DNA of 64,000 nucleotides from Prolixibacteraceae bacterium (GTDB lineage: Bacteria; Bacteroidota; Bacteroidia; Bacteroidales; Prolixibacteraceae): positions 213,229-277,228 of the forward strand of contig CAXXHH010000008.1 in the NCBI GenBank assembly GCA_963663005.2, in the 5' to 3' direction. The notes under the pieces were generated by a model. That model ran no database searches, had not been told where the DNA came from, and saw only the letters and a list, made by a program, of their open reading frames with translations. Below are positions 6,097-26,925 of the stretch, piece by piece; the first letter of the stretch is position 1, and each line of letters opens with the position of its first letter. A program made the translations under genes and the position numbers.

Positions 6097-7520
6097 GGAC
6101 GATAAAAACTGTGTTTTGGGGATTGGCGCAAATAGCCGGTCTCTCCGCTTTTGCCGAAAAACCGAACATCATTTACATTTTGGCTGATGATCTTGGTTAC
6201 GGCGATCTCAGCTGCTACGGACAGAAGCATTTTCAGACACCAAATATAGACCGGATGGCTAAAGAGGGAATGCTCTTTACCCAGCATTATGCCGGATGTA
6301 CCGTCAGCGCTCCTTCCCGCTCCTCCCTCATGACCGGTCTGAATACCGGCCATACTCCTATTCGTGGAAACAAAGAAGCTACCGAGGAAGGCCAATGGCC
6401 ACTTCCTGGTTCGACTGTCACCATACCCAAGCTACTCAAGGAAGCTGGTTATGTGACGGGAGGATTCGGGAAATGGGGACTTGGTTATCCGGGCTCGGAA
6501 GGTGATCCGAACAATCAGGGGTTCGACGAGTTTTACGGGTTTAACTGCCAGCGGATGGCCCATAACTATTATCCCGATCATCTTTGGGATAATCAGAAAA
6601 AGGTGATGCTGGAGGAAAACACCGGCGATAAATTTGGTCAATACGCTCCTGAGCTGATACACCAGCGCGCCATACAATTTATGGAGAAAAACAGGAACAG
6701 ACCCTTCTTCATGTTTTATCCAACCACGATCCCGCATGCCGAATTGATGGTGCCGAAGAAGTATATGGATAAGTTTAGGGGAAAATTCCTGCCCGAACAT
6801 TCATTCAAAGGAGCCGTACCCGGCGATAAAGGATTCAGAGTCGGATCGTATGGGACGCAACCTGAATCTCACGCCGCATTTGCTGCCATGGTTACTCTTC
6901 TCGATGAAAAAGTCGGTGAGCTGTTTGCCAAGCTAAAAGAGCTCGGATTGGATAAAAATACGATCGTGCTTTTCAGTTCCGACAATGGTCCGCATTTGGA
7001 AGGTGGCGCCGATCCCGATTATTTTGATAGCAATGGTCCATTCAAAGGCTACAAACGCGACCTGTATGAAGGAGGTATTCGCGAGCCCATGATTGCCTGG
7101 TGGCCCGGGAAGATTAAAGCCGGATCAACCTCCGACCTTATTTCTGCCTTCTGGGACGTGATGCCAACTTTGACGGATATTGCCGGCGTTAAATCACCGG
7201 AAAAACTGGACGGAATTTCTTTCCTTCCAACCCTTCTTGGTGAAAAAGGCCAGAAACAGCACGAAACGATGTACTGGGAATTTCATGAGCAAAATGGCAG
7301 ACAAGCGATTCGCAAAGGATCATGGAAACTGGTAAAATACAACGTGCTGATTCCTCAGAAGACGACTACCGAACTTTTCGACCTGAGCAAGGATCCTGGC
7401 GAAGAAAACGACCTGGCAAACAAATATCCCAACATCGTTAAGGAACTCTCTACGTTGATCGCAGGATCGAGAATTCCGTCAGACGTGTATAAATTTCAGC
7501 AGCAAACGGTGATTCAATAA
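6093..7520 (+). CDS. S1-family sulfatase (arylsulfatase-like), apparently Ser-type
   Basis: PNIIYILADDLGYGD, sulfatase signature CTVSAPSRSSLMTG (S-x-P-x-R), GKWGLG, SSDNGP. A signal peptide is present. Confidence 0.9.
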   Translation: MRTIKTVFWGLAQIAGLSAFAEKPNIIYILADDLGYGDLSCYGQKHFQTPNIDRMAKEGMLFTQHYAGCTVSAPSRSSLMTGLNTGHTPIRGNKEATEEGQWPLPGSTVTIPKLLKEAGYVTGGFGKWGLGYPGSEGDPNNQGFDEFYGFNCQRMAHNYYPDHLWDNQKKVMLEENTGDKFGQYAPELIHQRAIQFMEKNRNRPFFMFYPTTIPHAELMVPKKYMDKFRGKFLPEHSFKGAVPGDKGFRVGSYGTQPESHAAFAAMVTLLDEKVGELFAKLKELGLDKNTIVLFSSDNGPHLEGGADPDYFDSNGPFKGYKRDLYEGGIREPMIAWWPGKIKAGSTSDLISAFWDVMPTLTDIAGVKSPEKLDGISFLPTLLGEKGQKQHETMYWEFHEQNGRQAIRKGSWKLVKYNVLIPQKTTTELFDLSKDPGEENDLANKYPNIVKELSTLIAGSRIPSDVYKFQQQTVIQ

Positions 7521-7550
7521 CCAAAATTCATTTTTATTATTTGTGCACTC

Positions 7551-9326
7551 ATGAAAAAAGGTATAGTTTTTCTACTCTTGCTCACCATTTCGATTCAGTC
7601 AGCATTCTCGCAAAAGATTGTCAGCCAGGATCAAAGGATGCAGTGGTGGCGTGAGGCTCGTTTTGGTATGTTTATCCATTGGGGACTCTATTGCATTCCC
7701 GCCGGCGAATGGAAAGGAACTGAATATCCTCAGATCGGCGAATGGATCATGAAAAATGCAAAAATTCCGGTGCAGGAATACCGTGAATTAGCAAAGCAAT
7801 TTAACCCTGTGAAATTTAATGCCAAAGAGTTCGTGGCAACGGCAAAGAATGCTGGAATGAAATATATCACCATCACCTCCAAGCACCACGACGGTTTTGC
7901 GATGTTCAAATCGAATGCCTCCAAATACAATATTGTGGATGCGACACCTTATGGCAAAGATCTCATTAAAGCATTGGCAGAAGAATGTAAGTTACAAGGG
8001 CTGAAATTGTGTTTCTACTATTCTCAGTCGCGCGACTGGAACGAACCAAACGGTCTGGATAACGAATGGGATTTCCCAAAGGAACGCAACTTTCAATATT
8101 ACCTCGATGCGAAAGTTAAACCTCAGCTGACAGAATTACTACTGAATTATGGGCCAATCGGACTGATCTGGTTTGATACGCCAATGACCATTTCGAAAGA
8201 GCAGGCTCAAAGCCTGAAAGACCTGGTTCGCAGTCTGCAACCTGAATGCATCATCAGCGGCCGATTGGGCGGCGGAGTGGAGACAGATTACATGTCGACA
8301 GGTGATAATGTGATCCCTGCAACCGTCGTGCCCGGCGATTGGGAAGTGCCCGCAACCCTCAACAACACGTGGGGTTTCAAGAAGAACGACCACGAATGGA
8401 AATCTCCCGAAGCGCTTACCCGATTGCTCTTCGATATCGCCGCAAAGGGTGGAAACTACCTGCTCAATGTTGGACCTACCTCTGAAGGAGTTATCCCGAA
8501 AGAATCAGTAGATATTCTGGCAAAAGTTGGCGACTGGATGAAAATCAACCAGGATGCCATCTATGGGACACAAGCCAGTCCTTACAAAATTGAGTTCAAA
8601 TGGGGTAACATCACCCAAAAAGCCGGAAAACTATATCTCGGAATTTTCAACTGGCCAGAGAAAGATTTCTATCTCGAAGGATTGAAAACGAAAGTAAAGA
8701 AGATCTATCTGCTTGCCGACAAGCAACAAAAAGCTTTGCCTTTTAAAGAGATTTTCGATCCAAAAACAGATCATCACAGGATAAAAATTCAACTTCCAAA
8801 ACAAGCGCCCGACAAAATCGTTTCGGTGGTTGTCATCGAAATAGATGGTGCCGCAGAAGTTGAATCGGCTATCTGCCAACAGGCAAATAAAACCATCCTG
8901 CTACCCGGAATAGTGGCAACAGCTCAAAAAGAGGGCAAGCCGGCTAATCTTAAATTCACCGCACGAGGCGGAGGCGCCGACTGGATGGATAGCGCCGTCA
9001 CGCTTACCTGGAGTTTCAAAGTCGAGAAGGCAGGAAGCTACAAGGTCGACATCATCACCACCGAAACAGGCTCGCACGGAACACCCGTTTGGCAGGGTGG
9101 ACAAAGTATCAAAATTAAATGCGCAGGCCAGGAGATTTCGTCAACAATCAAAGACGAAAGCAGGGAATACAACCAACGCAGCCAATACTGGAAACTGATT
9201 CATTCGGGTGCTGGCAAGATAAAATTTGAAAAGCCCGGCACCTATGAACTGACACTGAGCCAACAAAATGTTACCGAAAACAAGATCGGATTTACCTTCA
9301 AAGAAATTAATCTTACCAATAATTAA
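7551..9326 (+). CDS. GH29 alpha-L-fucosidase with C-terminal beta-sandwich domain
   Basis: Signal peptide. WWREARFGMFIHWG and KYITITSKHHDGFAMFKS are typical of GH29. Confidence 0.9.
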   Translation: MKKGIVFLLLLTISIQSAFSQKIVSQDQRMQWWREARFGMFIHWGLYCIPAGEWKGTEYPQIGEWIMKNAKIPVQEYRELAKQFNPVKFNAKEFVATAKNAGMKYITITSKHHDGFAMFKSNASKYNIVDATPYGKDLIKALAEECKLQGLKLCFYYSQSRDWNEPNGLDNEWDFPKERNFQYYLDAKVKPQLTELLLNYGPIGLIWFDTPMTISKEQAQSLKDLVRSLQPECIISGRLGGGVETDYMSTGDNVIPATVVPGDWEVPATLNNTWGFKKNDHEWKSPEALTRLLFDIAAKGGNYLLNVGPTSEGVIPKESVDILAKVGDWMKINQDAIYGTQASPYKIEFKWGNITQKAGKLYLGIFNWPEKDFYLEGLKTKVKKIYLLADKQQKALPFKEIFDPKTDHHRIKIQLPKQAPDKIVSVVVIEIDGAAEVESAICQQANKTILLPGIVATAQKEGKPANLKFTARGGGADWMDSAVTLTWSFKVEKAGSYKVDIITTETGSHGTPVWQGGQSIKIKCAGQEISSTIKDESREYNQRSQYWKLIHSGAGKIKFEKPGTYELTLSQQNVTENKIGFTFKEINLTNN

Positions 9327-9329
9327 GTC

Positions 9330-10772
9330 ATGCAAATCAATTATTTAAAAATCTATGCTCTGTTTTTCCTGCTCATGTTGTCGGCAGCAGGAATGGCAGA
9401 AGTTACCCTCCCGCTGTTTTTTAACAACAACATGGTTCTTCAGCAAGGAATTACCATCCCTGTCTGGGGCTGGGCAAAACCGGGAGAAAAAGTCACGGTA
9501 ACTCTGGATAAAAATGTCGTCAGTACCCGGACTGCCAAAACCGGTAAATGGCGCGTGAACCTCCCAAAGATGAATTACGGCGGCCCATACGTCCTGACCA
9601 TCAAGGGGAAAAATCTGGTTACCATAGAGAATGTTCTTATTGGCGAGGTTTGGGTATGCTCCGGCCAGTCAAACATGGAGTTCAAGGTATCTACCACGAA
9701 AAATGCCGAGGCCGAAATAGCTGCCGCCAACTATCCGGATATCCGATTGTTTACTGTCAAAAAAAGAGTCTCACAGCTTCCGCAGGATAAGCTCGATGAG
9801 GGATCATGGTCATTGTGCTCGCCGCAGACCGTTCCAGGGTTTTCGGCCGTAGGCTATTTCTTCGGAAGAAATTTGTACGAAAACCTGAAGGTTCCTATTG
9901 GCTTAATTCATACTTCATGGGGCGGCACTGTTGCCGAAACCTGGACGAGCGCCGAGACGATCTCGACGGATCCCGATTTTTCAGAATTGCTTCAAAAGCT
10001 GAAGACAGTTGACATGGCCACCGCAAAGGTTGCCCCCAATAACTACCCCACGCTGTTGTATAACGGAATGGTCAATCCATTGGTTCCTTATGCCATCAAA
10101 GGTGTAATCTGGTATCAGGGCGAATCAAACGCCTCCCGCGCCCAGCAATACAAAAGAGTCTTCTCAAACATGATCAAAGACTGGCGCACAAAATGGAATC
10201 AGGGAAATTTCCCCTTCCTTTTCGTGCAGCTTGCCAACTACAAAAAGCCGGTTACGGTACCTTCCAACAGTGAATGGGCCGAATTACGCGAAACCCAAAC
10301 GCAGACGCTGCAACTCGAGAACACCGGAATGGCGACCATCATCGACGCCGGAATGGCAGACAATATTCATCCGACAGACAAGCAAGTTGTAGGTTATCGT
10401 CTTTCGTTGGCTGCTCGTAAAGTGGCATATGGAGAATCGCTGGTTTACACAGGTCCGACCTACCGCGAAAAGAAAATCGACGGAAACAAAATTTATGTAA
10501 CTTTCGATAATGTTGGCAAGGGTCTAAAGGTGAATAATTTATACGGATACGTCAACGGGTTCAGCATTGCCGCTGATAATGGGGAATTCAAGTGGGCCAA
10601 GGCATCGGTGGTAAATCAGAATACAATCGTGGTCTCCAGTGAGTCGGTAGAAAAACCCTCTGATGTCAGATACGGATGGGCAGACAACCCCGACGATCTG
10701 AACCTGTACAACGCAGAAAATCTGCCTGCAAATCCGTTTAGAACGGACAAAAGACCGGGAATAACAAAATAA
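9330..10772 (+). CDS. Sialate O-acetylesterase family protein (SGNH-type carbohydrate esterase)
   Basis: GEVWVCSGQSNME, WYQGESN and QLANY blocks, plus a signal peptide. Confidence 0.85.
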   Translation: MQINYLKIYALFFLLMLSAAGMAEVTLPLFFNNNMVLQQGITIPVWGWAKPGEKVTVTLDKNVVSTRTAKTGKWRVNLPKMNYGGPYVLTIKGKNLVTIENVLIGEVWVCSGQSNMEFKVSTTKNAEAEIAAANYPDIRLFTVKKRVSQLPQDKLDEGSWSLCSPQTVPGFSAVGYFFGRNLYENLKVPIGLIHTSWGGTVAETWTSAETISTDPDFSELLQKLKTVDMATAKVAPNNYPTLLYNGMVNPLVPYAIKGVIWYQGESNASRAQQYKRVFSNMIKDWRTKWNQGNFPFLFVQLANYKKPVTVPSNSEWAELRETQTQTLQLENTGMATIIDAGMADNIHPTDKQVVGYRLSLAARKVAYGESLVYTGPTYREKKIDGNKIYVTFDNVGKGLKVNNLYGYVNGFSIAADNGEFKWAKASVVNQNTIVVSSESVEKPSDVRYGWADNPDDLNLYNAENLPANPFRTDKRPGITK

Positions 10773-10898
10773 AAAAAGATCAGCCAATTTTGATTTTACT
10801 TTTTTGGCTGATAACTGTCTATTAATTACTTTAGACGACAAGATTTGAACAAACTATATAGAATTAATAACCCCCGTAATGGGAATAAATTTAAAACC

Positions 10899-11636
10899 AT
10901 GAAGAGAAACATTTTTTTGACCATCACTTTGATTGCAGCCATGTTAATCGCTGCTCCCGCCTTTTCTCAAAAGGTGAATGAACTGACTAAAAAAGAGAAA
11001 AAAGAAGGCTGGACACTTTTATTCAATGGAAAAAATTTCGATGGCTGGAGACAGTGCAACGGAACCGTCATGCCCACCAACTGGGTTATTGAAGATGATG
11101 CGATGAAAGTCTTCACAGCACCCGACAAAAAACCCGGACAAGGTTCTAACGGTGACATCCTGTATCCTGGAAAGAAATACAAAAATTTCGAACTCACGAT
11201 CGACTGGAAAGCAAGCAAAGAAGCTAACTCAGGAATTTTCTACAACGTGAGAGAAGTTCCGGGCAAACCAATCTATTATGCTGCTCCTGAGATTCAAGTT
11301 CTCGACAATGTTGATGCTGGCGATAATAAACTGGCGAATCACCTTGCAGGTTCATTGTATGACATTCTTCCATGTGATCCAAAAACAGTAAATCCTGCCG
11401 GTCAGTGGAATACTTGCAAAGTTACCCTGAAAGATGGTGTTTGTGTACATTATATGAACGGCAAAGAGGTTGTTAAATACACCTTGTGGACTCCTGAATG
11501 GGATGCAATGGTAGCCAAGAGCAAATTCAAATCATTCCCAGGCTGGACTGAAGGAATTGCGAAAGAAGGCTTCATCGGTCTGCAGGATCACGGATACGCT
11601 GTTTGGTTCCGTAACATCAAAATTCGCGAGCTCTAG
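10899..11636 (+). CDS. DUF1080 (3-keto-disaccharide hydrolase domain) protein, secreted
   Basis: ATG at 10899 gives the signal peptide MKRNIFLTITLIAAMLIAAPAFS. GWRQ..NWVIEDD, NSGIFY, EIQVLD, GLQDHG..VWFRNIKI are characteristic of DUF1080. Confidence 0.85.
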   Translation: MKRNIFLTITLIAAMLIAAPAFSQKVNELTKKEKKEGWTLLFNGKNFDGWRQCNGTVMPTNWVIEDDAMKVFTAPDKKPGQGSNGDILYPGKKYKNFELTIDWKASKEANSGIFYNVREVPGKPIYYAAPEIQVLDNVDAGDNKLANHLAGSLYDILPCDPKTVNPAGQWNTCKVTLKDGVCVHYMNGKEVVKYTLWTPEWDAMVAKSKFKSFPGWTEGIAKEGFIGLQDHGYAVWFRNIKIREL

Positions 11637-11665
11637 AAATCAGCTCTTTTTGACCCTAACACAAA

Positions 11666-11701
11666 ATGCCTCAAATAGTAATTTATTTGGGGCATTTTTT
11701 C
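11666..11701 (+). terminator. Rho-independent terminator after the DUF1080 gene
   Basis: Stem ATGCCTCAAA/TTTGGGGCAT (11666-11675 / 11686-11695, one U-G pair) followed by TTTTTT. The track ORF start at 11666 lies inside this hairpin. Confidence 0.6.
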
Positions 11702-11722
11702 AGGAATAAAAACATATCCATC

Positions 11723-12643
11723 ATGCATCTTCGTAATTTTTTGATCTTTTCATCCCTGGCACTCGTTTCCTGCTCCACAAACCCTGCAAATAAACCTCAA
11801 CCCAAAGTGGAGAAAACGGATCCTGTCAAAAGTTCGGAATCCATTCAGACTGTCACAAAACGGGAAATGGTTTCGTTTGAAGGCGGCGCTTTCACCATGG
11901 GGTCTTCGGATGGACCGAATCAGGAGCAGCCTGCCCATCGTGTCGAAGTCAAGCCATTCAGCATCGACAAATATCCCGTCACGGTTGCTGATTTCCGCAG
12001 ATTCATCGAGGCAACGGGTCACAAGACCGACGCCGAGAAATTTGGAGATTCAGGCGTTTTCGATTTCGCCACTTCGGCCTGGACGCTAAAACCCGGGGCT
12101 ACCTGGCAATATCCGATGGGAAAAAATACTGCCCGTGCGGAGGACAACTTACCCGTCACGCAGGTTAGCTGGTATGATGCAAATGCCTATGCCGCGTGGG
12201 AAGGAAAGCGACTACCGTCGGAAGCCGAATGGGAATTTGCAGCCCGCTGCGGAGGTTCAGGCACCAGCCGCTTTAGCTGGGGCGACAACCTGGTCGTGAA
12301 TGGGAAATATCAGGCCAACGTCTGGCAAGGAACCGATGTCTCGGCAAAACAGGGTGACGATGGATTTGTACTCACATCACCGGTAGGATATTATGGATTG
12401 ACGAAATGCGGCCTGGCCGATATGGGCGGAAACGTATGGAACTGGTGCGCTGATGTTTATAAGCTCTATCCCGGAAATAACGCTCCCTTTCAGGAAAATC
12501 CGGATTTGAAAGTTATTCGCGGAGGTTCTTTCTTTTTCGACCAAAACGGTGAAAAGAGCTATACAGTCAGCGGGAGGGCATTCAATACACAGGAAACCTC
12601 GCTTTTTAATACCGGATTCAGATGCGCAAAAGATGGAAAATAA
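11723..12643 (+). CDS. FGE-fold (SUMF1/EgtB/PvdO family) lipoprotein lacking the catalytic Cys pair
   Basis: ATG at 11723 gives the lipobox MHLRNFLIFSSLALVSCS. FGE-domain blocks are present (RLPSEAEWEFAARCGG, GNVWNWCADVY, IRGGSFF). The region after RGGS reads FFFDQNGEKSYTVSGRAF, with no Cys. Confidence 0.85.
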   Translation: MHLRNFLIFSSLALVSCSTNPANKPQPKVEKTDPVKSSESIQTVTKREMVSFEGGAFTMGSSDGPNQEQPAHRVEVKPFSIDKYPVTVADFRRFIEATGHKTDAEKFGDSGVFDFATSAWTLKPGATWQYPMGKNTARAEDNLPVTQVSWYDANAYAAWEGKRLPSEAEWEFAARCGGSGTSRFSWGDNLVVNGKYQANVWQGTDVSAKQGDDGFVLTSPVGYYGLTKCGLADMGGNVWNWCADVYKLYPGNNAPFQENPDLKVIRGGSFFFDQNGEKSYTVSGRAFNTQETSLFNTGFRCAKDGK

Positions 12644-12883
12644 TAATTTTTAGGTCATTATGCCCTGAATAAAATATTTTTCTAAATTTGGCGGTCATTA
12701 TTGAGTAAATCTCCTTAAAACAACAACTAAACAATGATCAAAACGGCTTGAAAAGCAGATCCTTTTCCTGCGGGCTGGGATCAGAACAGTTCAGAATGGA
12801 TTTTTCTTTAAATGACGAAAAAATTTGTACTCCATATGTATTTCTTTTTTAATAAGATAACGGTCAGAAAAATAATTTTCAGG

Positions 12884-14416
12884 ATGAAATTTAGCAATTT
12901 GTTCAATGGTAAAAAATCCAAATTTTGGTTGGTTGGCTTAGGTATTTTGCTCTGTGCTTTCTTTATTTTTTCCTTCAATCTGGTTTCAAATTATACCTCC
13001 TCAGACAAATATTGTGTCTCCTGCCATATTCATCCTGTTCAGGATCAGAACTGGCGACTATCCGAGCACTACAATAATAAATCGGGTTTTGTGACTCACT
13101 GCGTGGAGTGTCACCTTCCTCCCAAAGGTCACGGATACATTCCGGCGAAAGCCTGGCACGGCGCCAAGGACATCTACGGAAAACTTTTTAAAGACAGTGC
13201 CTCGTTCGACTGGGAAGCAAAGAAATCGCTCGAAAATGCAAAAAAATACGTCTACGAATCATCCTGTATCAAGTGCCATCAAAACCTTTTCCCTGCTACT
13301 CTTTCTGTGAATGGCAGCAATGCCCACCTGCAATATATCAACAGCAAGGATATTCCAAAACCAAATTGTATCAACTGCCACCTCAACGTCGGACATTACG
13401 ACAAGAACAATCTCCACGCCCACAATGCCAGTTTTGGAGTAACCGAAACAGTGGCTAAAGAGCTTTTCTCCGAACCGGCCAAAGTTGACAAATTCGAAAA
13501 TTTTGCCGAGAAAGTACCTGGAACGACCCTTTCGTTCGATATGGTAGCAATTCCCGAAGGAACATTTGAGATGGGAAGTCCTGAAAATGAGGAGCTGCGC
13601 AAGCCCGACGAAGGACCTGTACGCAAAGTCCACCTTACAAAATTCTGGATGGGCAAAGCTGAAGTTAGCTGGGAAGAATACCTCGAATTTTTCAAGGCAA
13701 CTGCCTCTCAGGGTCGCAAAGAAGCCGTCGCTGTTCAGCCAGTTACCGATGCGATAACCGGCCCGACTCCGCCATGGGGAGCCCCCGATCAAGGCTGGGG
13801 AAAGGGAACACGCCCTGCCATTACTATGTCGTGGAAAGCGGCAAGCACCTATTGCCTTTGGCTTTCCAAAAAAACCGGAAAGAAATACCGCCTGCCTACG
13901 GAGGCTGAATGGGAATATGCCTGCCGCGGCGGTTCAAAGGATCCTTACTTCTTCCCGGGAAATCCGAAGAAATTTACCTCTGCGGGTATGATGAAGAAAA
14001 TTTTTGGTCCGGACACCACCATGATAAACTCATATGTTATCTACAAGGTGAACAGTCAGTCGAAAACGCGTGAACCCGGTTCCGTAAAAGCAAATCCGTT
14101 CGGATTGAAAAATATGCTGGGCAACGTTGCGGAGTTTTGCTCCGACTTTTATGCCCCAAACAGTTATAAAACCGCATCAGGCGATCTGCTCAACAACCCT
14201 ACCGGTCCGGAGAATGGACAGGAACATGTGATCCGCGGCGGTTCATTCAAGAGCGATGCCAAGGATGTCAGAAGCGCCGCGCGCGATTTCACCAAAACAA
14301 AGGCGTGGCTGATGACTGACCCACAGATGCCGAAGAGTATCTGGTGGTATTCGGATAGTAATGACGTTGGTTTCAGAGTTGTTTGTGAGGCCGACTCTAC
14401 TCTTTCAGGAAAGTGA
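12884..14416 (+). CDS. Fusion protein: membrane-anchored NapC/NirT/NrfH-type tetrahaem cytochrome c plus C-terminal FGE-fold domain
   Basis: ATG at 12884 (MKFSNLF..), one TM helix, and four CxxCH motifs (CVSCH 13013, CVECH 13100, CIKCH 13265, CINCH 13367). From about nt 13523 an FGE-like domain follows (RLPTEAEWEYACRGG, GNVAEFCSDFY, IRGGSFKSD). Confidence 0.85.
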   Translation: MKFSNLFNGKKSKFWLVGLGILLCAFFIFSFNLVSNYTSSDKYCVSCHIHPVQDQNWRLSEHYNNKSGFVTHCVECHLPPKGHGYIPAKAWHGAKDIYGKLFKDSASFDWEAKKSLENAKKYVYESSCIKCHQNLFPATLSVNGSNAHLQYINSKDIPKPNCINCHLNVGHYDKNNLHAHNASFGVTETVAKELFSEPAKVDKFENFAEKVPGTTLSFDMVAIPEGTFEMGSPENEELRKPDEGPVRKVHLTKFWMGKAEVSWEEYLEFFKATASQGRKEAVAVQPVTDAITGPTPPWGAPDQGWGKGTRPAITMSWKAASTYCLWLSKKTGKKYRLPTEAEWEYACRGGSKDPYFFPGNPKKFTSAGMMKKIFGPDTTMINSYVIYKVNSQSKTREPGSVKANPFGLKNMLGNVAEFCSDFYAPNSYKTASGDLLNNPTGPENGQEHVIRGGSFKSDAKDVRSAARDFTKTKAWLMTDPQMPKSIWWYSDSNDVGFRVVCEADSTLSGK

Positions 14417-14443
14417 AAATTGAATAGCGATACGAGAAAAAAA

Positions 14444-15787
14444 ATGGAAAAGAAAAATATCGACAGAAGAAAATTTTTGGGAGCCGGTGTCCTTGCCGGA
14501 GTATCGGTTATTGGCGCCAATGCGCTGCTCTCATCATGCAAACAAGAAGCTACTAACGCCTCCCTCGGACTTCCACCCATCTTGAAAGGTGCGCCAAAAG
14601 GGAAAAAGCTTCGTGCCGGATTGGTTGGTGCCGGAAACCGGGGTACCGGGGCGGCTATTAACTTTATCAGCGCTGGTCCTGATCTCGAAATCATCGCAGT
14701 TTGCGATGTCTTTCAAGACAAAATTGATGCTTTCCGCGAGCGTTTCAAATCTTTCAATTTGGAAATCCCGGAGAAGAACTGTTTCGCCGGATTCGATGGA
14801 TACAAAAAAATGATGGCTCTGGAAGATTTGGATGTTGTTCTGTTGGCAACCCCTCCCCGCTTTCGCCCCGAACATTTTCTGGAAGCTATCCAAAATAAAA
14901 AACATGTCTTCATGGAGAAACCGGCCGCCGTCGACCCTGTCGGTATCCGGTCGGTGATTGCTACCGCGAAAAAAGCTGAAGCGCTTGGACTATGTGTCGT
15001 TACAGGCACCCAGCGCCGGCACCAGGAAGATTATATTGAGACCTATAAACGGGTTCAGGCCGGCGCAATAGGAAGGCTCACATCCGCTAAAGCATTCTGG
15101 AACCAGGAGCATGTCTGGTTTCGTACCCGCGAAGAGGGGTGGGACGATATGACCTACATGATGCGCAACTGGAACAATTTCTGCTGGCTATGCGGCGATC
15201 ATATCCTCGATACGCACGTTCACAACATTGATGTGGTGAATTGGTTCATGGGTAAGACTCCTATCCGCGCAATCGGCAACGGTGGTCGTCACCGCCGCGT
15301 TACGGGCGACCAGTACGACTATTTCAATATCGACTTCGATTATGGCAATGGCGTCAGCTCTCACAGCTACTGCCGCCAGATCGACAGTTGCGCCAATGGA
15401 ACCGGCGAGCTGGTAATGGGTACCGAAGGCTATACCAACTGCGTTAACACCATCTGGGATCTTAACGGAAAAATAAAATGGCAGTTCGAATATCCCAAAG
15501 ATGAAAATGGGAATACCATGAGTCAACTCAAAATACCTGCCTACGTTCAGGAGCACATGCACCTGGTTCATGCCATCCGAAAAAACGAGTACGTGAACCA
15601 GGCCGAACAGACAGCCCTTTCCACCCTCACCGCGATTATGGGCAGAACAGCGGCCTACACCGGACAAATGGTGACCTGGGAGGAAATAATGAAATCGGAT
15701 ATGCAACTCGGACCAAAAGAAATGGTATTCGGTCCGGTGGATATGAAATTCGATGTACCACTTCCCGGCACCCCTCCAAACGTCTAA
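14444..15787 (+). CDS. Gfo/Idh/MocA family oxidoreductase with Tat signal
   Basis: MEKKNIDRRKFLGAG signal, Rossmann motif GLVGAGNRGTG, and the EKP motif (FMEKPAAVD). The ATG at 14444 is preferred over the TTG at 14420. Confidence 0.9.
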   Translation: MEKKNIDRRKFLGAGVLAGVSVIGANALLSSCKQEATNASLGLPPILKGAPKGKKLRAGLVGAGNRGTGAAINFISAGPDLEIIAVCDVFQDKIDAFRERFKSFNLEIPEKNCFAGFDGYKKMMALEDLDVVLLATPPRFRPEHFLEAIQNKKHVFMEKPAAVDPVGIRSVIATAKKAEALGLCVVTGTQRRHQEDYIETYKRVQAGAIGRLTSAKAFWNQEHVWFRTREEGWDDMTYMMRNWNNFCWLCGDHILDTHVHNIDVVNWFMGKTPIRAIGNGGRHRRVTGDQYDYFNIDFDYGNGVSSHSYCRQIDSCANGTGELVMGTEGYTNCVNTIWDLNGKIKWQFEYPKDENGNTMSQLKIPAYVQEHMHLVHAIRKNEYVNQAEQTALSTLTAIMGRTAAYTGQMVTWEEIMKSDMQLGPKEMVFGPVDMKFDVPLPGTPPNV

Positions 15788-15813
15788 AACTATTTTTTGG
15801 CGGTGTGAGTGCA

Positions 15814-15850
15814 CCCCAATCCAAAATCCAAAATTGAAAATCCAAAATTT
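15814..15850. repeat. Period-8 CCAAAATC-type intergenic repeat, copy 1
   Basis: The sequence is CCCCAATCCAAAATCCAAAATTGAAAATCCAAAATTT. It is near-identical to the copy at 25084-25119. A 12-nt direct repeat ACTTTTCACTTA x2 follows at 15867-15892. Confidence 0.8.
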
Positions 15851-15902
15851 TTCTTTTTCTCCTTCCACTTTTCACTTAAAACTTTTCACTTAATTAAAAA
15901 AA

Positions 15903-17219
15903 ATGATTACTAACTCAAACAGAAGGGCTTTTTTGAAAAAATCAGCGGTTGCTTCTGTGGGAACGATGATTCTTCCACAGATCATTCCCTCTACCGCTTT
16001 GGGCATGGGTGGCAGGTTAGCTCCAAGCAACCGGCTCGTCATGGGACAAATCGGTACCGGATCTCAGGGTAAAAGCAACATGCGCGACTTCCTCAAACTG
16101 AACAAAGAAGTACAGTTTGTAGCCGTTTGTGACGTGGATGCCAACAACTTACAACAGGCGAAAGAGCTGGCAAACAAGGCCTATGCCGACAACGGATGCC
16201 GCACTTATGTCGATTTTCGCGAATTCCTTGACAAAGAGAAACTGGATGCCGTCTCCATTGCGCTACCAGACCATTGGCACGGAATTATCTATTCCGCCGC
16301 TGCTGAAAAGAAGGTACATGTCTATGGCGAAAAACCAATCTGCCGCACAATTCGTGATGGCCAAACTATCGTGAAAGCCGTACAAAAAAACAATATCATC
16401 TGGCAAACGGGAAGCTGGCAAAGATCGAACGCCAATTTCCATAGAGGCGCCGAGCTGGCTATCAATGGCCGAATCGGTAAGATTCACCTGATCGAAGCCG
16501 GACTTCCAAACGGAGGAAAAGGAATTGGTACACCTCCGATACAGGAAATTCCGAAAGAACTGAATTGGGATATGTGGTTAGGACCTGCTCCCAAAGTTGC
16601 TTACCGCGGTGTTAGTCACTGGAACTGGCGATGGATCCTTGAATATTCCGGCGGACAACTAACCGACTGGGCCGGCCACCATATAGACATCGCAAACTGG
16701 GGCGCCGGACTAGAGCATACCGGACCCGTCGAAATTGTTGGCGAAGGTGTTTACCCAAGAGAAGGTATTTACAATGTTCCCGTCGAGTACGACTTCCTGT
16801 GCACCTATGCCAACGGAATCAAAATGAGGGTGGCAAATGAGGCACGCTTCGAAAAAGGATCCGGTACCACCTGGTACGGAGATAAAGGCTGGATACACGT
16901 CAATCGTGGTAACGTGCTGGAAGCTTCCGATCCGAAGATCCTGAAGGAAGTAATCGGCGCCAAAGAAATCCAACTGATAAAGAGCGACAACCACTGGCAA
17001 AATTTTGTCGACAACGTCCGCGCAGGTTCAAAAAAGACCATCGCCCCGATTGAAGTTGCTTATCGTGCCATCTCTGTCGCGCTCTTAGGTGAAATCGCCA
17101 TGCAGACCGGTCAAAAAATCAAGTGGGATCCTAAGAAGGAAGAAATCATCGGCAACCCAATGGCAGCCCGTTTGCTCGATCGTCCCTATCGTCAACCATG
17201 GCAATTACCAACTATTTAA
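15903..17219 (+). CDS. Gfo/Idh/MocA family oxidoreductase with Tat signal (second paralogue)
   Basis: MITNSNRRAFLKKSAVASVG signal, GQIGTGSQGKSN Rossmann motif, YGEKPICRT. Confidence 0.9.
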   Translation: MITNSNRRAFLKKSAVASVGTMILPQIIPSTALGMGGRLAPSNRLVMGQIGTGSQGKSNMRDFLKLNKEVQFVAVCDVDANNLQQAKELANKAYADNGCRTYVDFREFLDKEKLDAVSIALPDHWHGIIYSAAAEKKVHVYGEKPICRTIRDGQTIVKAVQKNNIIWQTGSWQRSNANFHRGAELAINGRIGKIHLIEAGLPNGGKGIGTPPIQEIPKELNWDMWLGPAPKVAYRGVSHWNWRWILEYSGGQLTDWAGHHIDIANWGAGLEHTGPVEIVGEGVYPREGIYNVPVEYDFLCTYANGIKMRVANEARFEKGSGTTWYGDKGWIHVNRGNVLEASDPKILKEVIGAKEIQLIKSDNHWQNFVDNVRAGSKKTIAPIEVAYRAISVALLGEIAMQTGQKIKWDPKKEEIIGNPMAARLLDRPYRQPWQLPTI

Positions 17220-17228
17220 TCCAAGCAC

Positions 17229-18452
17229 ATGAAAAAAATTTATACCGTATTCCTGCTGCTGGCAGCATTTTTCTTCCTCTCAACAGGTCAGGTTCAGGCT
17301 GCTAATTACAAGGCATTGATCGTTACCGGTCAAAGCAATCACTACTGGGAAGGTTCGTATCCAATCCTGCAAGAGTTGCTGATTCAGACCAACCTGTTTA
17401 CCGTCGATGTAGTTAAAACACCTGCCAAAGGTGGGGATATGTCGGCCTTTCAACCGGATTTCAAGAAATACAACATCGTGGTAATAGATTATAATGGCGA
17501 GTCCTGGTCAGAAAAAACGAAAACAGCATTTCTGGATTTCGTGAATAATGGCGGAGGAGTGGTCATTTACCATGAAGCCGACAACTCATTTGCCGACTGG
17601 AAAGAGTACAATAAAATCATCGGTATTGGTGGGTGGAATGGCCGCTCTGCCAAGGATGGCCCTTATGTTTATTATAAGAGGAATAAATTGGTTATTGATT
17701 CGGTATCGACCGGCCCGACTGGCTCACACGGACCTCAGCATGAATATGTTGTAAGAACCAGAAATGCCGAACATCCAATCATGAAAGGACTTCCGACCTC
17801 CTGGATTCACGGGAAAGATGAACTTTACAGCACCCTTCGCGGGCCTGCTAAAAACATGGATATTCTGGCTACAGCTTACGCGGATACTTCCAAAAAGGGA
17901 ACCGGCAGGGACGAACCCATGCTGATGACCCTCCAATATGGCAAAGGAAGAATTTTCCACACCGCGCTGGGTCATGTCGGTAAAGACGAGACACATCCTG
18001 CCACTGAATGCGTCGGATTCATCGTGACTTTCCAACGCGGCGCCGAATGGGTCGCTTCAGGTAAGGTAACCCAGCAAATACCACTCGATTTCCCAAATAT
18101 GGCAGGTTCCGTGTTGAGGCCTGATTATAAAGAAACAACGCTGGCTGATGATATCGAAAAAATTTCCACCTACACCATTGACAGAAGTACCCGCTTTTTC
18201 ACTGATCTTCAGGGAAGAATCCGCAGAGTCAGCGGAAATCCTGCCGCCTTGCTGGATATTGAAAAGAAGATGGTCAAAGTCTTGCAAGACAACGACGCTA
18301 CCGTGGAAGGTAAGAAACTCCTTCTGAAAGAACTCGCCTGGATGGGTTCTAACTACTGCGTTCCTGCTGTTCAGGATCTGCTTAAAAATGCCGATCTGAA
18401 GGAAGCCGCTGCGTTTACCCTCGAGAGAATGAAAGGCCCCCGCAAAATCTGA
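17229..18452 (+). CDS. ThuA-domain protein with C-terminal HEAT-like repeats, secreted
   Basis: Signal peptide. ThuA-like core (ALIVTGQSNHYWEG, VIDYNGE, GGGVVIYHEADNSF, WKEYNKIIG). The C-terminal roughly 100 aa are helical repeats (LLKELAWMG..AVQDLLKNADLKEAAAFTL). Confidence 0.8.
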   Translation: MKKIYTVFLLLAAFFFLSTGQVQAANYKALIVTGQSNHYWEGSYPILQELLIQTNLFTVDVVKTPAKGGDMSAFQPDFKKYNIVVIDYNGESWSEKTKTAFLDFVNNGGGVVIYHEADNSFADWKEYNKIIGIGGWNGRSAKDGPYVYYKRNKLVIDSVSTGPTGSHGPQHEYVVRTRNAEHPIMKGLPTSWIHGKDELYSTLRGPAKNMDILATAYADTSKKGTGRDEPMLMTLQYGKGRIFHTALGHVGKDETHPATECVGFIVTFQRGAEWVASGKVTQQIPLDFPNMAGSVLRPDYKETTLADDIEKISTYTIDRSTRFFTDLQGRIRRVSGNPAALLDIEKKMVKVLQDNDATVEGKKLLLKELAWMGSNYCVPAVQDLLKNADLKEAAAFTLERMKGPRKI

Positions 18453-18492: not shown

Positions 18493-18540
18493 AGGCGTCT
18501 GTACACCACGTAACACAATGGTGTACAGACGCCTTTCTCT
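18493..18540 (+). terminator. Strong rho-independent terminator ending the 10.9-18.5 kb cluster
   Basis: Perfect 16-bp stem AGGCGTCTGTACACCA/TGGTGTACAGACGCCT (18493-18508 / 18519-18534), 10-nt loop, then TTCTCT. Confidence 0.75.
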
Positions 18541-18668: not shown

Positions 18669-19598
18669 ATGTTTTCCCTCGTCATCCCAGTCTTTAACGA
18701 AGAACAGTTAATCGATGATCTGGTCTCCCGGGTTGTGGCATCGGTAAATTTATTTGCCGTCGACTATGAGCTACTCTTCATTGACGACGGAAGTACCGAC
18801 AGAACCGTTGAAAAACTCCTAAAGCACAGACTCACAAACAAGAAAATAAAGATTGTATCCCTGTCGAAAAATTTCGGACACCAGGCTGCCTTCACGGCCG
18901 GACTGGAACTATCCACCGGAGACATTGTTGCCATGATGGACGGAGACCTGCAGGATCCGCCGGAACTGCTGGAAAAGATGTACCGGAAAATCCGGGAGGA
19001 AGGTTACGACATCGTTAGCGGAAAAAGAACCGGAACAAAAGGACGCACCCAGCGTACCTTTTATACCCTTCTTTTTCATGTGGTTTTCAAATACATGGCC
19101 GGACTCGAAAATATGGAGAATGCCGGGAATTTTTCCATGATGACGCGCGAAGCAGTTCAGGCACTCCTTTCCATGAAAGAAAAAGTTCGCTATATGCCCG
19201 GACTACGCTCATTCATCGGTTTTAATCAGGGAAGTGTTGAATACATCCGGGAAGACCGGTTTCAGGGCGAACCCAAAATGAGCTTGTCCAAACTCTTTGC
19301 GCTGGCCAACGATGCCATCTTTTCTTTTTCCCGGTTTCCCATCCGGCTCTGCCTATATCTTGGCATCCTGGGCACCGTAGTCTTCATGTCGGCCGGCATC
19401 TACGTTCTGGTCGACAAAATTCTTGGTCTCGCCATAATCGGATGGTCTTCCACTCTTCTAAGCATCTATTTCCTGGGCTCAATTCAGCTGATCTTCCTGG
19501 GAATCGTCGGAGAATATGTTTTCCGTATCTACAAAGAATCTCAAAACCGGCCGATCTATTTTATCCGAAAAATCCATGAAGATCCTTCCAATCCGTGA
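18669..19598 (+). CDS. GT2 polyprenyl-phosphate glycosyltransferase (ArnC/GtrB/DPM1-like)
   Basis: FSLVIPVFNEE, FIDDGSTD, MDGDLQDPP, and two C-terminal TM helices. Confidence 0.9.
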   Translation: MFSLVIPVFNEEQLIDDLVSRVVASVNLFAVDYELLFIDDGSTDRTVEKLLKHRLTNKKIKIVSLSKNFGHQAAFTAGLELSTGDIVAMMDGDLQDPPELLEKMYRKIREEGYDIVSGKRTGTKGRTQRTFYTLLFHVVFKYMAGLENMENAGNFSMMTREAVQALLSMKEKVRYMPGLRSFIGFNQGSVEYIREDRFQGEPKMSLSKLFALANDAIFSFSRFPIRLCLYLGILGTVVFMSAGIYVLVDKILGLAIIGWSSTLLSIYFLGSIQLIFLGIVGEYVFRIYKESQNRPIYFIRKIHEDPSNP

Positions 19599-21663
19599 GG
19601 GAATAACGGGTAAATCCCTATTCAACCTCGCCGCCTTCCTGCTGCTGATCTTCATACTCTTCAGCGCCAATAAGGCCGGCATCTCCGGCGACGAGGAGGT
19701 TCACTACAATCAGTCAGTCAGTGTTTACAACTATTTCTCCTCCCTGGGTGTCAATAACAGTGCGCTGAATACGCCTGTCACCCATCTTAAATACTACGGA
19801 CAATCGTTCGACAACATAACCACCATCCTGATACGTTGGTTCGGAATTGAAGATATCTACAGTTTCAGACATCTGATGAACAGCTTTGCCGCCTGGTTGA
19901 CAATTCTGCTCTCCGCGCTTCTTGCTGTTTGGCTTTCCGGGTACGAGGCCGGATTTCTTACCCTCATTCTATTCGCGTTATCTCCTACTTTTCTGGGTCA
20001 CGCACAGAATAATCTGAAGGATATCCCATTTGCGCTTGCTTACATTGCGGGCTCTCTTTACATGCTAAAATGGCTCTTCGCTAAAAAACCATCTCTGGTT
20101 AATTCGTTGCTTCTCATCTTCTCAATCGCATTTTGCATCGGCATTCGTCCGGGCGGACTGGTTTTAATCTGTTATCTCCTGCTTTTTTTCCTGATCAAAG
20201 AGGTAATTGCCTTCCGAAAAAATGCAAGATATAACACGGCATTCCTTCGCAACAAATTGATATCCATCGGATTCATTATTTTCCTTTCCTATCTCCTGGG
20301 AATCCTTCTTTGGCCATTCGTACTAAAATACCCGGTCACCGGTTTTTGGGAATCCTACAAAGTTATGACCCAGTTTCCGACAACTGTCCGGCAAATTTTT
20401 GAAGGCAGATTCGAATGGTCCGATTTCATGCCATGGTACTATCTTCCCAAACTGATGCTCATCACAATCCCACTCGTGGTCTGGGCCGGAATCCTTTGTT
20501 TTATCTCCCTTCCGGGGAAAGCCCTAAAGAAAGAGTGGTTAAAATATACCTTTTTGTTGTTCACAATCCTCTTCCCAATCCTGTTTGTAATTTATGAACG
20601 ATCCAACCTGTACGGCTCCTGGCGACATTTTCTATTTATCTATCCTGGAATCGTTGTCCTTTCTGCCACAGGAATCTGGAATCTTCTGCGGTTTTTTAAG
20701 TCTGCCGTAAAAAAGGGAATAATTCTCCTGATAGTTTTTCTACTTGCCCTGCATCCTATCGATTTCATGGCACGAAATTATCCCTACTATTACCTCTATT
20801 ACAATCAATTAGTCGGCGGACTGAAAGGTGCATACGGCAAGTACGAAACGGATTATTACTACCATTCCGTCCGGGAAGGATCAGAATGGCTGATTGGATA
20901 TTTGAAGCAGAACAATCCGTCCGACAGTCTGAAAATTGGCTCCAATTTTCCGGCAGATTGGTTCTTCCGAAAGGAGAAAAACCTCTCTTCCACATATTTC
21001 ATGTATAGCGAGAGAAGCCAGCATGACTGGGATTTTTACATCGTTGCCAACAGTTACATCTCGCCAACTCTTCTTAAAAATGGAAACTGGCCTCCTAAAA
21101 ATGCGATCAAAATAATTAAAGCAGACGGAATCCCGATCTGTGCAATTTTAAAAAGAGAAAACAAGGATGATCTTCTTGGATTCCAGGCATATAATCGAAA
21201 CTCGCTGCAAGAAGCCACAAAATTCTTTGAAGATGCCATTAGAAAGGGGTGTCAGGATGAAATAATCTTTTATAATTTTGCGTCGGTATGCTACAAATCG
21301 GGTGACAAAGAAAAAGCAACCACTTTATTGCAGAAGGGGTTGGAAATTAATCCGGATTGTGAACGTATTCTGATGCTTCAGGCAAACATTTTTGCTGAAG
21401 TGAAAAAGTTTGATCAGGCTGCAGAATTATACCAAAAGGTGATACGGGTAAACCGGAAATATTTTGACGCTTATCCTGCGCTGGCAAAGATTTGGATAAA
21501 TCAGGGCGAGCTAAAAAAAGCCCGGAAGCTGCTGAAGGATTGTTTGATGATGAGCCCCAAAAATAAGGCGGCCATTCTTGCTTTGGCCGACAGTTACAGA
21601 AAGAGCGATCCCGATGTAGCAAAAAAGTATGAAGAATTAGCCCTTCAACTTCCAACTGATTGA
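19576..21663 (+). CDS. GT-C fold glycosyltransferase (GT39/ArnT/PMT-like) with C-terminal TPR domain
   Basis: ATG at 19576 (MKILPIREG..), overlapping the GT2 stop by 23 nt. About 11 TM segments with a GDEE motif in the first loop. The last roughly 190 aa are TPR repeats. Confidence 0.8.
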   Translation: MKILPIREGITGKSLFNLAAFLLLIFILFSANKAGISGDEEVHYNQSVSVYNYFSSLGVNNSALNTPVTHLKYYGQSFDNITTILIRWFGIEDIYSFRHLMNSFAAWLTILLSALLAVWLSGYEAGFLTLILFALSPTFLGHAQNNLKDIPFALAYIAGSLYMLKWLFAKKPSLVNSLLLIFSIAFCIGIRPGGLVLICYLLLFFLIKEVIAFRKNARYNTAFLRNKLISIGFIIFLSYLLGILLWPFVLKYPVTGFWESYKVMTQFPTTVRQIFEGRFEWSDFMPWYYLPKLMLITIPLVVWAGILCFISLPGKALKKEWLKYTFLLFTILFPILFVIYERSNLYGSWRHFLFIYPGIVVLSATGIWNLLRFFKSAVKKGIILLIVFLLALHPIDFMARNYPYYYLYYNQLVGGLKGAYGKYETDYYYHSVREGSEWLIGYLKQNNPSDSLKIGSNFPADWFFRKEKNLSSTYFMYSERSQHDWDFYIVANSYISPTLLKNGNWPPKNAIKIIKADGIPICAILKRENKDDLLGFQAYNRNSLQEATKFFEDAIRKGCQDEIIFYNFASVCYKSGDKEKATTLLQKGLEINPDCERILMLQANIFAEVKKFDQAAELYQKVIRVNRKYFDAYPALAKIWINQGELKKARKLLKDCLMMSPKNKAAILALADSYRKSDPDVAKKYEELALQLPTD

Positions 21664-23051: not shown

Positions 23052-23086
23052 AGGTCACAAAAGTAGGAAATTAACTCCTTCGCGGA

Positions 23087-23636: not shown

Positions 23637-23652
23637 TAAGATAGGGATCCAT

Positions 23653-25119: not shown

Positions 25120-25126
25120 CCTCTTC

Positions 25127-26882: not shown

Positions 26883-26925
26883 TTTTGTAGCTTTGAATGT
26901 TCCACAACTACTAGTAACACACTAC

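Follow-up and report, generated by a model that had tools for sequence, protein, structure and literature searches.

Pairing of a tetrahaem fusion with an exported dehydrogenase

The genes described here lie in a stretch of 64,000 nucleotides (the window) from the genome of a Prolixibacteraceae bacterium (GenBank assembly GCA_963663005.2, contig CAXXHH010000008.1, positions 213,229 to 277,228 of the forward strand). An earlier note on this DNA had described one cluster of six genes, and had proposed that a cytochrome encoded within it could be the electron outlet of the neighbouring periplasmic sugar dehydrogenases. As found by open reading frame (ORF) listing and profile searches, six plus-strand ORFs are indeed present at 10845-18452 (window coordinates are used throughout), all six with profile matches; in two of them, GFO_A and GFO_B, the twin-arginine motifs RRKF and RRAF agree with their description as Gfo/Idh/MocA dehydrogenases exported by the twin-arginine translocation (Tat) system. 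The electron-outlet proposal was supported in part: synteny and independent fusions speak for it in the case of GFO_A, and the six genes do not form a conserved unit. The gene preceding GFO_A encodes CytFGE, a cytochrome fused to a domain with the fold of formylglycine-generating enzyme (FGE), and this pair looks like a hitherto undescribed route for electrons from extracytoplasmic sugar oxidation into the respiratory chain. Its features are the following.

12884-14416, plus strand: CytFGE, tetrahaem NapC/NirT-FGE-fold fusion of 510 aa (PF03264 and PF03781)
12923-12985, plus strand: N-terminal membrane anchor, a hydrophobic stretch at residues ~14-34 (FWLVGLGILLCAFFIFSFNLV)
13013-13381, plus strand: haem c motifs CVSCH, CVECH, CIKCH and CINCH, at nt 13013, 13100, 13265 and 13367
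13529-14416, plus strand: FGE-fold domain of CytFGE, catalytic cysteines absent, GGSFKSD at nt 14237
13748-13768, plus strand: candidate site for flavinylation by ApbE, D289-A-I-T-G-P-T295, with flavin mononucleotide (FMN) predicted on Thr295
14318-14356, plus strand: clade-specific C-terminal motif DPQMPKSIWWYSD, within the FGE-fold domain
14420-15787, plus strand: GFO_A, Tat-exported Gfo/Idh/MocA dehydrogenase (PF01408, E 8e-16; PF22725)

The ORF listed for the fusion spans 12812-14416, but its homologues indicate that the ATG at 12884 is the start. The cytochrome part scored 89.2 bits against PF03264 (gathering threshold 24.1; ORF residues 35-196) and the C-terminal part matched PF03781 with an E-value of 2e-44. 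In the 510-aa protein the CxxCH motifs stand at residues 44, 73, 128 and 162. Their Cys and His residues are invariant in alignments A1 and A3, and the motifs were found invariant in 43 sequences. Homologues of CytFGE number in the thousands; the 120 closest are 67-88% identical and 489-534 aa long (most 510-511), and every one of them has four CxxCH motifs. When a representative library was searched with the fusion, giant multi-FGE-domain proteins dominated the matches, and the tetrahaem fusions formed a handful of clusters at 50% identity. An AlphaFold2 model of CytFGE, computed with 43 close homologues, reached a mean predicted local distance difference test (pLDDT) value of 32.7 and a predicted template modelling (pTM) score of 0.22, its sole confident helix covering residues 10-38. 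By analogy with other members of the NapC/NirT family, CytFGE would exchange electrons with the quinone pool.

GFO_A, which possibly starts at the ATG at 14444, has its RRKF motif at nt 14465, GAGNRG at 14627, EKP at 14915 and HVHNID at 15215. The RR.F motif, GxGxxG, EKP and the active-site residues H268 and D271 are invariant in 22 orthologues. Its Tat export and intact dinucleotide-binding motif suggest that GFO_A holds a non-dissociable nicotinamide adenine dinucleotide (phosphate), NAD(P), and an LSSC sequence that it is probably lipid-anchored. In the GFO_A proteins of tetrahaem loci (alignment A2; window 14420-14540) a lipobox-like ..[LIA][ST][SA]C forms the end of the Tat signal, and the lipobox cysteine is absent from orthologues that are paired with haem-less genes. 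Since the cysteine is confined in this way, the tetrahaem-paired GFO_A proteins appear to be Tat-exported lipoproteins, kept at the membrane near the cytochrome.

Loci related to the pair were gathered by a scan of a genome collection and by exact-protein look-ups, and all of their ORFs were compared with the window proteins. GFO_A was the next gene after the fusion in 15/15 loci that had been fetched via the fusion and had downstream sequence (L001-L009, L081-L084, L165-L167). The same was seen in 47/47 tetrahaem loci, with a median gap of 24 nt, when the window and loci fetched via GFO_A, a set biased toward having GFO_A, were included. In the reciprocal scan via GFO_A, an FGE-fold gene lay directly upstream in 38 of the 59 loci with enough upstream DNA; 30 of these genes were tetrahaem fusions, four were haem-less and four were cut by a contig end. 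From these forward and reciprocal counts, the pairing is obligatory when seen from the cytochrome and frequent when seen from the dehydrogenase.

The association also extends to relatives with one haem motif or none, which are 35-44% identical to the FGE-fold domain of the fusion: 17 of 26 such loci with flanking sequence have a GFO_A neighbour. The haem-less relatives come from five phyla (Planctomycetota, Verrucomicrobiota, Acidobacteriota, Gemmatimonadota and other Bacteroidota). At five loci (L013, L019, L020, L021, L024), from Verrucomicrobiota and Acidobacteriota, one or two PSCyt1 ('Planctomycete cytochrome c') domains, monohaem or dihaem and unrelated to NapC/NirT, are joined to the FGE-fold domain. 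Two independent fusions to haem proteins, together with the constant presence of a neighbouring dehydrogenase, are a strong argument for placing the FGE-fold domain between GFO_A and a cytochrome on an electron path.

The domain itself does not resemble a working FGE. True FGEs have two catalytic, copper-binding cysteines after a GGS[FY] motif. Where FGE has GGSFLCH..C, CytFGE has RGGSFKSDAKDVRSAARD, with no cysteine; the alignments to the T. curvata and human FGEs stop at this point, and the catalytic cysteines are missing from all aligned CytFGE homologues. The homologues in JGI are named 'formylglycine-generating enzyme required for sulfatase activity', and the missing cysteines render such public sulfatase-maturation names misleading. 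Were the names correct, the fusion would mature a neighbouring sulfatase, with the haems supplying or removing electrons, and the window does hold a sulfatase gene (6093-7520). We regard this explanation as barely credible, given the loss of both copper-binding residues (GGSFKSD in place of GGSFLCH..C) and the fact that sulfatase-like ORFs lie near the pair in just a handful of related loci, the constant neighbour being GFO_A.

The top match of the domain, both in NCBIfam (114 bits, cut-off 500) and in the PDB (5hha, E 1e-21), is PvdO, a dihydropyoverdine dehydrogenase. Like the domain studied here, PvdO and GldK/PorK are periplasmic, have the FGE-sulfatase fold without the catalytic cysteines and show no FGE activity, PvdO being the closest characterised relative. 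Unlike it, they have no flavinylation-type insertion, cytochrome fusion or GFO_A partner, and the scores obtained are far below the cut-offs of their families. Two motifs, PPWGAPDQGWGKG and DPQMPKSIWWYSD, are specific to the clade and strongly conserved in it.

A candidate flavinylation site and its linkage to apbE

ApbE is an enzyme that transfers FMN from flavin adenine dinucleotide (FAD) to proteins (FAD:protein FMN transferase). Its recognition motif is D-x-x-[S/T]-G-A-[S/T], with FMN attached to the final residue (PMC12052999, PMC8238504). A variant of this motif, D-A-I-T-G-P-T, is found in the FGE-fold domain of CytFGE. Every member of the fusion clade carries D-[AG]-[IV]-[ST]-G-[AP]-T-P-P-[WYF]-G at this position, the D, G and T of the motif are invariant among the aligned fusion homologues, and all 120 closest homologues have the motif, either as canonical DAI[ST]GAT (72) or in the G-P-T form (48). 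The segment is an insertion without counterpart in generic FGE-family proteins or in the other FGE-fold gene of the window (gene 1, described below). It is also the sole flavinylation-type motif across CytFGE and GFO_A, and no [ST]G[AGSP][ST] motif was found in any GFO_A protein checked.

Six neighbouring genes of about 330 aa, recurrent beside the haem-less pairs, were identified by Pfam as apbE (E <= 1e-64). A hidden Markov model (HMM) built from these six copies detected apbE in 21 of the fetched loci, all of which hold the present FGE-fold clade, and in 0/42 loci that hold generic FGE-family proteins only. The distance between apbE and the FGE-fold gene is at most 2.6 kb in 20 of the 21 loci and 9 kb in the remaining one (L034). 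Two tetrahaem loci are among them (L008 and L114), with apbE directly upstream of the fusion. Several of the apbE loci are compact three-gene operons, such as L014 (FGE-fold gene, GFO_A, apbE) and L024 (GFO_A, PSCyt1-FGE fusion, apbE). L011, L012 and L023 have apbE no more than ~550 nt from an FGE-fold gene that lacks an adjacent GFO_A, an arrangement which suggests that ApbE acts on the FGE-fold protein.

One of these loci, from an uncultured Flavobacteriaceae (L012, 9857-17351), has a somewhat different composition. A 180-aa ORF separates the FGE-fold clade gene from apbE, no GFO_A adjoins the FGE-fold gene, and the genes that follow, as read from their N-termini, are a short-chain-dehydrogenase-like ORF, a Tat-signal ORF of 211 aa and an ORF of 781 aa. 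The putative flavin module may thus serve other periplasmic dehydrogenases too.

The motif also bears on another possible role of the FGE-fold domain, namely that it is itself the catalyst. As a PvdO-like dehydrogenase it would use a small molecule or what GFO_A produces as substrate, the cytochrome would be its acceptor, and GFO_A would be an enzyme upstream or downstream in the pathway instead of an electron donor. The PvdO matches (114 bits; 5hha, E 1e-21) would fit such a role, the conserved clade motifs PPWGAPDQGWGKG and DPQMPKSIWWYSD are suggestive of a binding pocket, and some clade members do occur without GFO_A. The PvdO score, however, is far under its cut-off of 500, and a catalytic domain leaves unexplained both the near-obligatory adjacency to a Tat-exported NAD(P) enzyme and the presence of a flavinylation-type motif. 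We therefore consider it improbable.

Lineage-specific partners and surroundings of the pair

The remaining features of the cluster are the following.

10845/10899-11636, plus strand: DUF1080 protein (PF06439, E 1e-48)
11666-12643, plus strand: FGE-fold protein 1 (PF03781, E 4e-67)
15903-17219, plus strand: GFO_B, Tat-exported Gfo/Idh/MocA dehydrogenase (PF01408, E 1.5e-16; PF19051), RRAF at nt 15921
17229-18452, plus strand: ThuA-like secreted protein (PF06283, E 9e-26; signal peptide)
18493-18534, plus strand: hairpin with a perfect 16-bp stem and a weak T tail, the likely terminator closing a four-gene unit

The view of the six genes as one cluster became doubtful when spacing and synteny were considered. 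A gap of 240 nt separates FGE-fold gene 1 from the fusion gene, while the distances further downstream are 3-27 nt (fusion to GFO_A), 115 nt (GFO_A to GFO_B) and 9 nt (GFO_B to ThuA). Neighbours were counted in 37 tetrahaem loci with good flanks. The DUF1080 gene was near the pair in one of the 37, the window itself, and FGE-fold gene 1 in none outside the window; GFO_B was found in 8/37 and ThuA in 10/37. The conserved neighbourhood that the earlier note had looked to was hence seen for the cytochrome-FGE gene beside GFO_A (15/15, with the haem-less pairing across phyla) and did not extend to the DUF1080, ThuA and GFO_B genes. Based on gene spacing and these counts, the unit was redrawn as 12884-18452, comprising a universal two-gene core and the lineage-specific GFO_B and ThuA. 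The latter two occur solely where GFO_A shares at least 72% identity with the window copy.

The terminator, described earlier as strong, does have the perfect stem and a fold z-score of -5.4, with 0 shuffles folding as well; its T run is weak, as the tail is merely TTTCTCTC. A scan of the window with Rfam gave 0 matches to regulatory RNA. The number of sigma-70-type promoters was near chance (18 found, 11.8 expected), the Bacteroidetes-type -33/-7 pattern was at chance level and none was found upstream of the cassette; co-transcription was consequently judged from gene spacing alone.

The Rossmann half of GFO_B (residues 37-264) resembles glycoside 3-dehydrogenases of the BT_2158 type (PDB 8tdf, E 6e-26). 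The match to the BT_2158 family itself covered residues 6-272 and scored 150 bits (cut-off 750), and GFO_B had no match to the founding member of GH109 (PDB 2ixa) at E <= 1e-3. The corresponding values for GFO_A are 33 bits against the same family (NCBIfam NF058561, cut-off 750) and an E-value of 1e-4 against 2ixa, in the Rossmann part alone. Neither dehydrogenase reaches the BT_2158 cut-off, so the 3-keto-glycoside route invoked in the earlier note stands as an analogy.

ThuA matches PDB 4e5v over residues 27-302 (E 6e-101). Of the earlier description as a secreted ThuA-HEAT protein, the signal peptide and the ThuA domain were recovered and the HEAT repeats were not: the C-terminal extension of 105 residues (~303-407), which is missing in some orthologues, gave 0 Pfam matches, including none to HEAT families. 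An 'STGPT' sequence in the window's ThuA was examined as a second flavinylation site and rejected as a chance match, since it is not conserved in 14 orthologues. The ThuA gene begins 9 nt after GFO_B, an adjacency of ThuA-domain and Gfo/Idh/MocA genes that mirrors the pairing of ThuA with ThuB (Gfo/Idh/MocA) in the rhizobial trehalose 3-dehydrogenase. Here, by contrast, GFO_B would be exported by Tat and ThuA by Sec; both stand behind the cytochrome-GFO_A pair, in close relatives only. That GFO_B and ThuA may use the same electron outlet as GFO_A is a speculative suggestion.

Tandem copies of GFO_A were also observed: L114 (2442-7341) has the order fusion-GFO_A-GFO_A, L139 (3399-8444) has GFO_A-GFO_A-GFO_B-ThuA without a fusion, and a further case is L145. 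One electron outlet may serve several dehydrogenases.

A more frequent partner, not present in the window cassette, is a Tat-signal xylose-isomerase-like triosephosphate isomerase (TIM) barrel, confirmed by Pfam, which follows GFO_A in 16/37 tetrahaem loci. This protein could be a keto-sugar lyase or isomerase. A subgroup of GFO_A-type proteins (~50% identical) without an FGE-fold partner (L099, L100, L103, L115, L118, L121, L153) is always followed by a Tat TIM barrel of the same kind (311-314 aa, starting ...FKLKYAP..GMF).

The neighbours in the Bacteroides thetaiotaomicron locus BT2156-BT2160 offer a comparison. It likewise encodes a Tat-exported Gfo/Idh/MocA dehydrogenase of the Bacteroidota periplasm, together with DUF1080 and xylose-isomerase-like TIM-barrel partners, and the electron acceptor of its glycoside 3-dehydrogenase, BT2158, was left open (PMC8121099). 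It differs in having no cytochrome or FGE-fold partner and in being thought redox-neutral; neither GFO_A (33 bits) nor GFO_B (150 bits) comes near the cut-off of 750 for the BT_2158 family, and DUF1080 is not syntenic with the pair.

GFO_A and GFO_B could, in the same manner, be redox-neutral NAD-dependent glycosidases or oxidoreductases, similar to GH109, BT2158 or the Zymomonas glucose-fructose oxidoreductase (GFOR), and the cytochrome-FGE gene an unrelated neighbour. Tat-exported Gfo/Idh/MocA enzymes with a bound cofactor can cycle redox-neutrally, for BT2158 the acceptor was suggested to be a second sugar (PMC8121099), and the N-terminal half of GFO_B resembles enzymes of that type. This explanation is very improbable in view of the strict adjacency across phyla, with gaps of few nt (15/15 and 47/47), the two independent cytochrome fusions and the three-gene operons of apbE with the pair; in addition, both proteins score far under the BT_2158 cut-off, and the similarity to GH109 is marginal (E 1e-4). 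Membership in GH109, in the BT_2158 family and among true FGEs was rejected on the features tested (similarity, cut-off score and cysteines), and both the redox-neutral and the true-FGE explanations conflict with these features.

Upstream of the unit, the DUF1080 protein matches PDB 8tda and 8rr2 (E ~1e-47), which we take to be solved proteins of 3-keto-glycoside pathways. FGE-fold protein 1 is a predicted lipoprotein (..LVSCS) with neither the FGE cysteine pair nor the flavinylation-type insertion; its top family matches are EgtB/SenA C-terminal domains, far under cut-off. The region further upstream (5419-10772) encodes a DUF1349-like protein, the sulfatase mentioned above, a glycoside hydrolase family 29 (GH29) alpha-L-fucosidase and a SASA-type carbohydrate esterase. 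The sulfatase, GH29, SASA and DUF1080 genes hint at sulfated or fucosylated glycans, in a context that is not conserved.

Downstream of the cassette lie a glycosyltransferase family 2 (GT2) gene (18669-19598), a gene for a membrane protein with tetratricopeptide repeats (TPR; ~650-715 aa; 19516-21663) and an ORF of ~84 aa. The three genes follow the cassette in every close relative (L002, 12814-16005; L003, 12868-15995; L081, L083, L084 and L165-L167). In L002 and L003 the glycosyltransferase begins 9-12 nt past GFO_A and may share its operon; in the window the hairpin intervenes. The minus strand at 22008-26907 carries a selenium/sulfur-trafficking group, including a selD-like AIR synthase-family gene (22008-23051) and a gene for a rhodanese-domain protein (25720-26907). 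The same group is found in the relative L081 (19023-21533: selenium/sulfur carrier, class-V aminotransferase, TusA/DsrE); it is syntenic between the two but unrelated to the cytochrome-dehydrogenase finding. The two genes that had been pointed out as lying nearby, a secreted gluconolactonase and a Tat TIM barrel, are both present (an SMP-30/gluconolactonase gene at 28249-29184, plus strand, and a xylose-isomerase-like TIM-barrel gene at 30488-31423). They are, however, 10-12 kb away, the TIM-barrel gene is on the minus strand, and unrelated genes (GT2, TPR, selD-like and rhodanese) lie in between, so that the two genes show no link to the cluster. Toward the end of the window (~42000-64000) the G+C content changes from 0.42-0.48 to 0.32-0.40 and the sign of the GC skew flips near 52 kb; this segment may reflect a horizontal acquisition or a switch in strand bias.

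Proposed electron path, its direction and its meaning

A possible mechanism for the pair is as follows. GFO_A would fold around NAD(P) in the cytoplasm, be exported by Tat, as expected of a protein loaded with its cofactor there, and probably become lipid-anchored; outside, it would oxidise a hydroxyl of a sugar or glycoside. CytFGE, held in the inner membrane by a single helix, would bear the four NapC/NirT-type c haems and, at its C-terminus, the FGE-fold domain that is not an FGE, on which ApbE would attach FMN to Thr295 of D-A-I-T-G-P-T. The tethered flavin would then accept the hydride from the NAD(P)H bound to GFO_A, in the manner of a ping-pong second substrate, and would release single electrons through the four haems to menaquinone, so that extracytoplasmic sugar oxidation feeds the respiratory chain. 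The cofactor logistics would be divided accordingly, NAD(P) being loaded in the cytoplasm, and haem and FMN being added in the periplasm, to a protein that Sec has inserted.

The flavin relay is proposed because haems, which take up one electron at a time, cannot directly accept the hydride of bound NAD(P)H. Flavin is the standard converter between two-electron and one-electron transfers. The earlier model had no such step, and the flavinylation-type motif and the apbE linkage offer one. As to the product, the frequent TIM-barrel partner suggests that a keto-sugar is processed further.

Several known systems share parts of this scheme. The LacABC lactose/glucoside 3-dehydrogenase, the FAD glucoside 3-dehydrogenase and fructose dehydrogenase also oxidise sugars in the periplasm and pass electrons via flavin and c-type haem to the respiratory chain; they have one Tat-exported component, and their gene neighbourhoods often include DUF1080 and TIM-barrel enzymes (PMC9007349, PMC8121099). 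The proteins are unrelated to the present ones, the catalyst there being an FAD enzyme of the GMC type and here a Gfo/Idh/MocA NAD(P) enzyme, with a proposed ApbE-tethered FMN on the FGE-fold domain and a NapC/NirT tetrahaem membrane anchor. GFOR of Zymomonas mobilis has the Gfo/Idh/MocA fold, a Tat export dictated by tightly bound NADP and a ping-pong re-oxidation by a second substrate; that substrate is fructose, whereas the present proposal assigns its role to FMN tethered to a protein, from which electrons would go on to haems and quinone. CymA with the ApbE-flavinylated urocanate reductase UrdA and fumarate reductases, and the FMN subunits NqrC/RnfG, resemble the pair as proposed here in combining a NapC/NirT tetrahaem, covalent FMN on D-x-x-[S/T]-G-A-[S/T] and a catalytic domain outside the cytoplasm (PMC8238504, PMC12052999). 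The flavin of these systems is borne by FMN_bind-type domains, and quinol delivers the electrons to the substrate; here an FGE-fold domain, itself part of the cytochrome protein, would be the carrier, and the flow would run from substrate to quinone.

This last comparison raises the question of direction. The same complex may run in reverse, electrons passing from menaquinol through the NapC/NirT haems and the flavin to GFO_A or the FGE-fold domain, which would reduce a periplasmic substrate (a keto-sugar, an enone or another oxidant). It would then be a respiratory or detoxifying reductase, as in the case of CymA feeding flavinylated urocanate and fumarate reductases. The PF03264 family is best known for quinol dehydrogenases that serve periplasmic reductases, fumarate and urocanate reductases do receive electrons via ApbE-flavinylated motifs (PMC8238504), and the evidence from synteny, fusions and apbE is equally compatible with either direction. 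The Tat-signal Gfo/Idh/MocA enzymes, on the other hand, are known as sugar oxidisers or as redox-neutral, and the recurrent Tat TIM-barrel partner fits the processing of an oxidised keto-sugar product. Transfer from NAD(P)H (~-320 mV) to menaquinone (~-74 mV) is downhill, and that from menaquinol to bound NAD(P)+ uphill. On account of these potentials flow toward menaquinone is favoured, and we consider the reverse direction unlikely, albeit the most serious of the alternatives.

A number of observations weigh against the proposed path from GFO_A to menaquinone. The usual task of NapC/NirT proteins is to oxidise quinol on behalf of periplasmic reductases, the opposite direction. The window motif, DAITGPT, has Pro at the canonical Ala position, and the haem-less relatives, including those with a dedicated apbE, carry the less canonical D-A-[IV]-[ST]-R-P-[ST]; we know of no ApbE substrate of that form. 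The HMM search found no apbE within the 64-kb window. About one third of the GFO_A-type genes have no FGE-fold neighbour, some FGE-fold clade genes stand alone, and the low-confidence model of CytFGE (pLDDT 33) gives no geometry for a flavin pocket or an interface. FGE-fold and Gfo/Idh/MocA proteins go unmentioned in two surveys of flavinylated proteins and in a 2025 review, and our literature search yielded no paper connecting FGE-fold proteins with ApbE, or with Gfo/Idh/MocA proteins and cytochromes; this silence fits novelty, yet it also leaves no independent support.

On balance, we give about even chances to a two-protein periplasmic dehydrogenase in which electrons pass from GFO_A via a tethered FMN and the haems to menaquinone, extended in this lineage by GFO_B and ThuA. 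In kind it would be a respiratory periplasmic sugar dehydrogenase, assembled from protein families without an earlier link to such a job. We infer the formation of a GFO_A-CytFGE complex, the attachment of FMN, the direction of electron flow, the class of substrate and the sharing of the outlet with GFO_B and ThuA, and likewise the conservation of energy, which would depend on a downstream quinol oxidase. A broader and more tentative proposal, to which we give somewhat less than even chances, is that the FGE-fold clade is an unrecognised class of ApbE-flavinylated electron-transfer modules. Swinging on its Thr tether, the FMN of such a module would re-oxidise NAD(P)H buried in Tat-exported Gfo/Idh/MocA sugar dehydrogenases of the nicotinoprotein kind and then pass the electrons to c-type cytochromes, be it the fused NapC/NirT tetrahaem of Bacteroidia, the fused PSCyt1 of Verrucomicrobiota and Acidobacteriota, or separate acceptors elsewhere.

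The prediction hinges on a single threonine and is thus easily tested. If it is true, the FGE fold gains the role of a flavin carrier, which would make it a new class of ApbE substrate, and thousands of public annotations as sulfatase-maturing enzymes would need correction. Few enzyme families of the glycan-degrading Bacteroidota, Planctomycetota and Verrucomicrobiota are as expanded and as little understood as the exported Gfo/Idh/MocA proteins. For one large clade of them, a flavin-haem wire to the quinone pool would explain how the cofactor is re-oxidised in the periplasm. On the broader proposal, these very large families would gain a physiological electron acceptor, and a new kind of respiratory sugar dehydrogenase, of wide occurrence, would be defined; some of the sugar oxidation outside the cytoplasm would then supply respiration directly.

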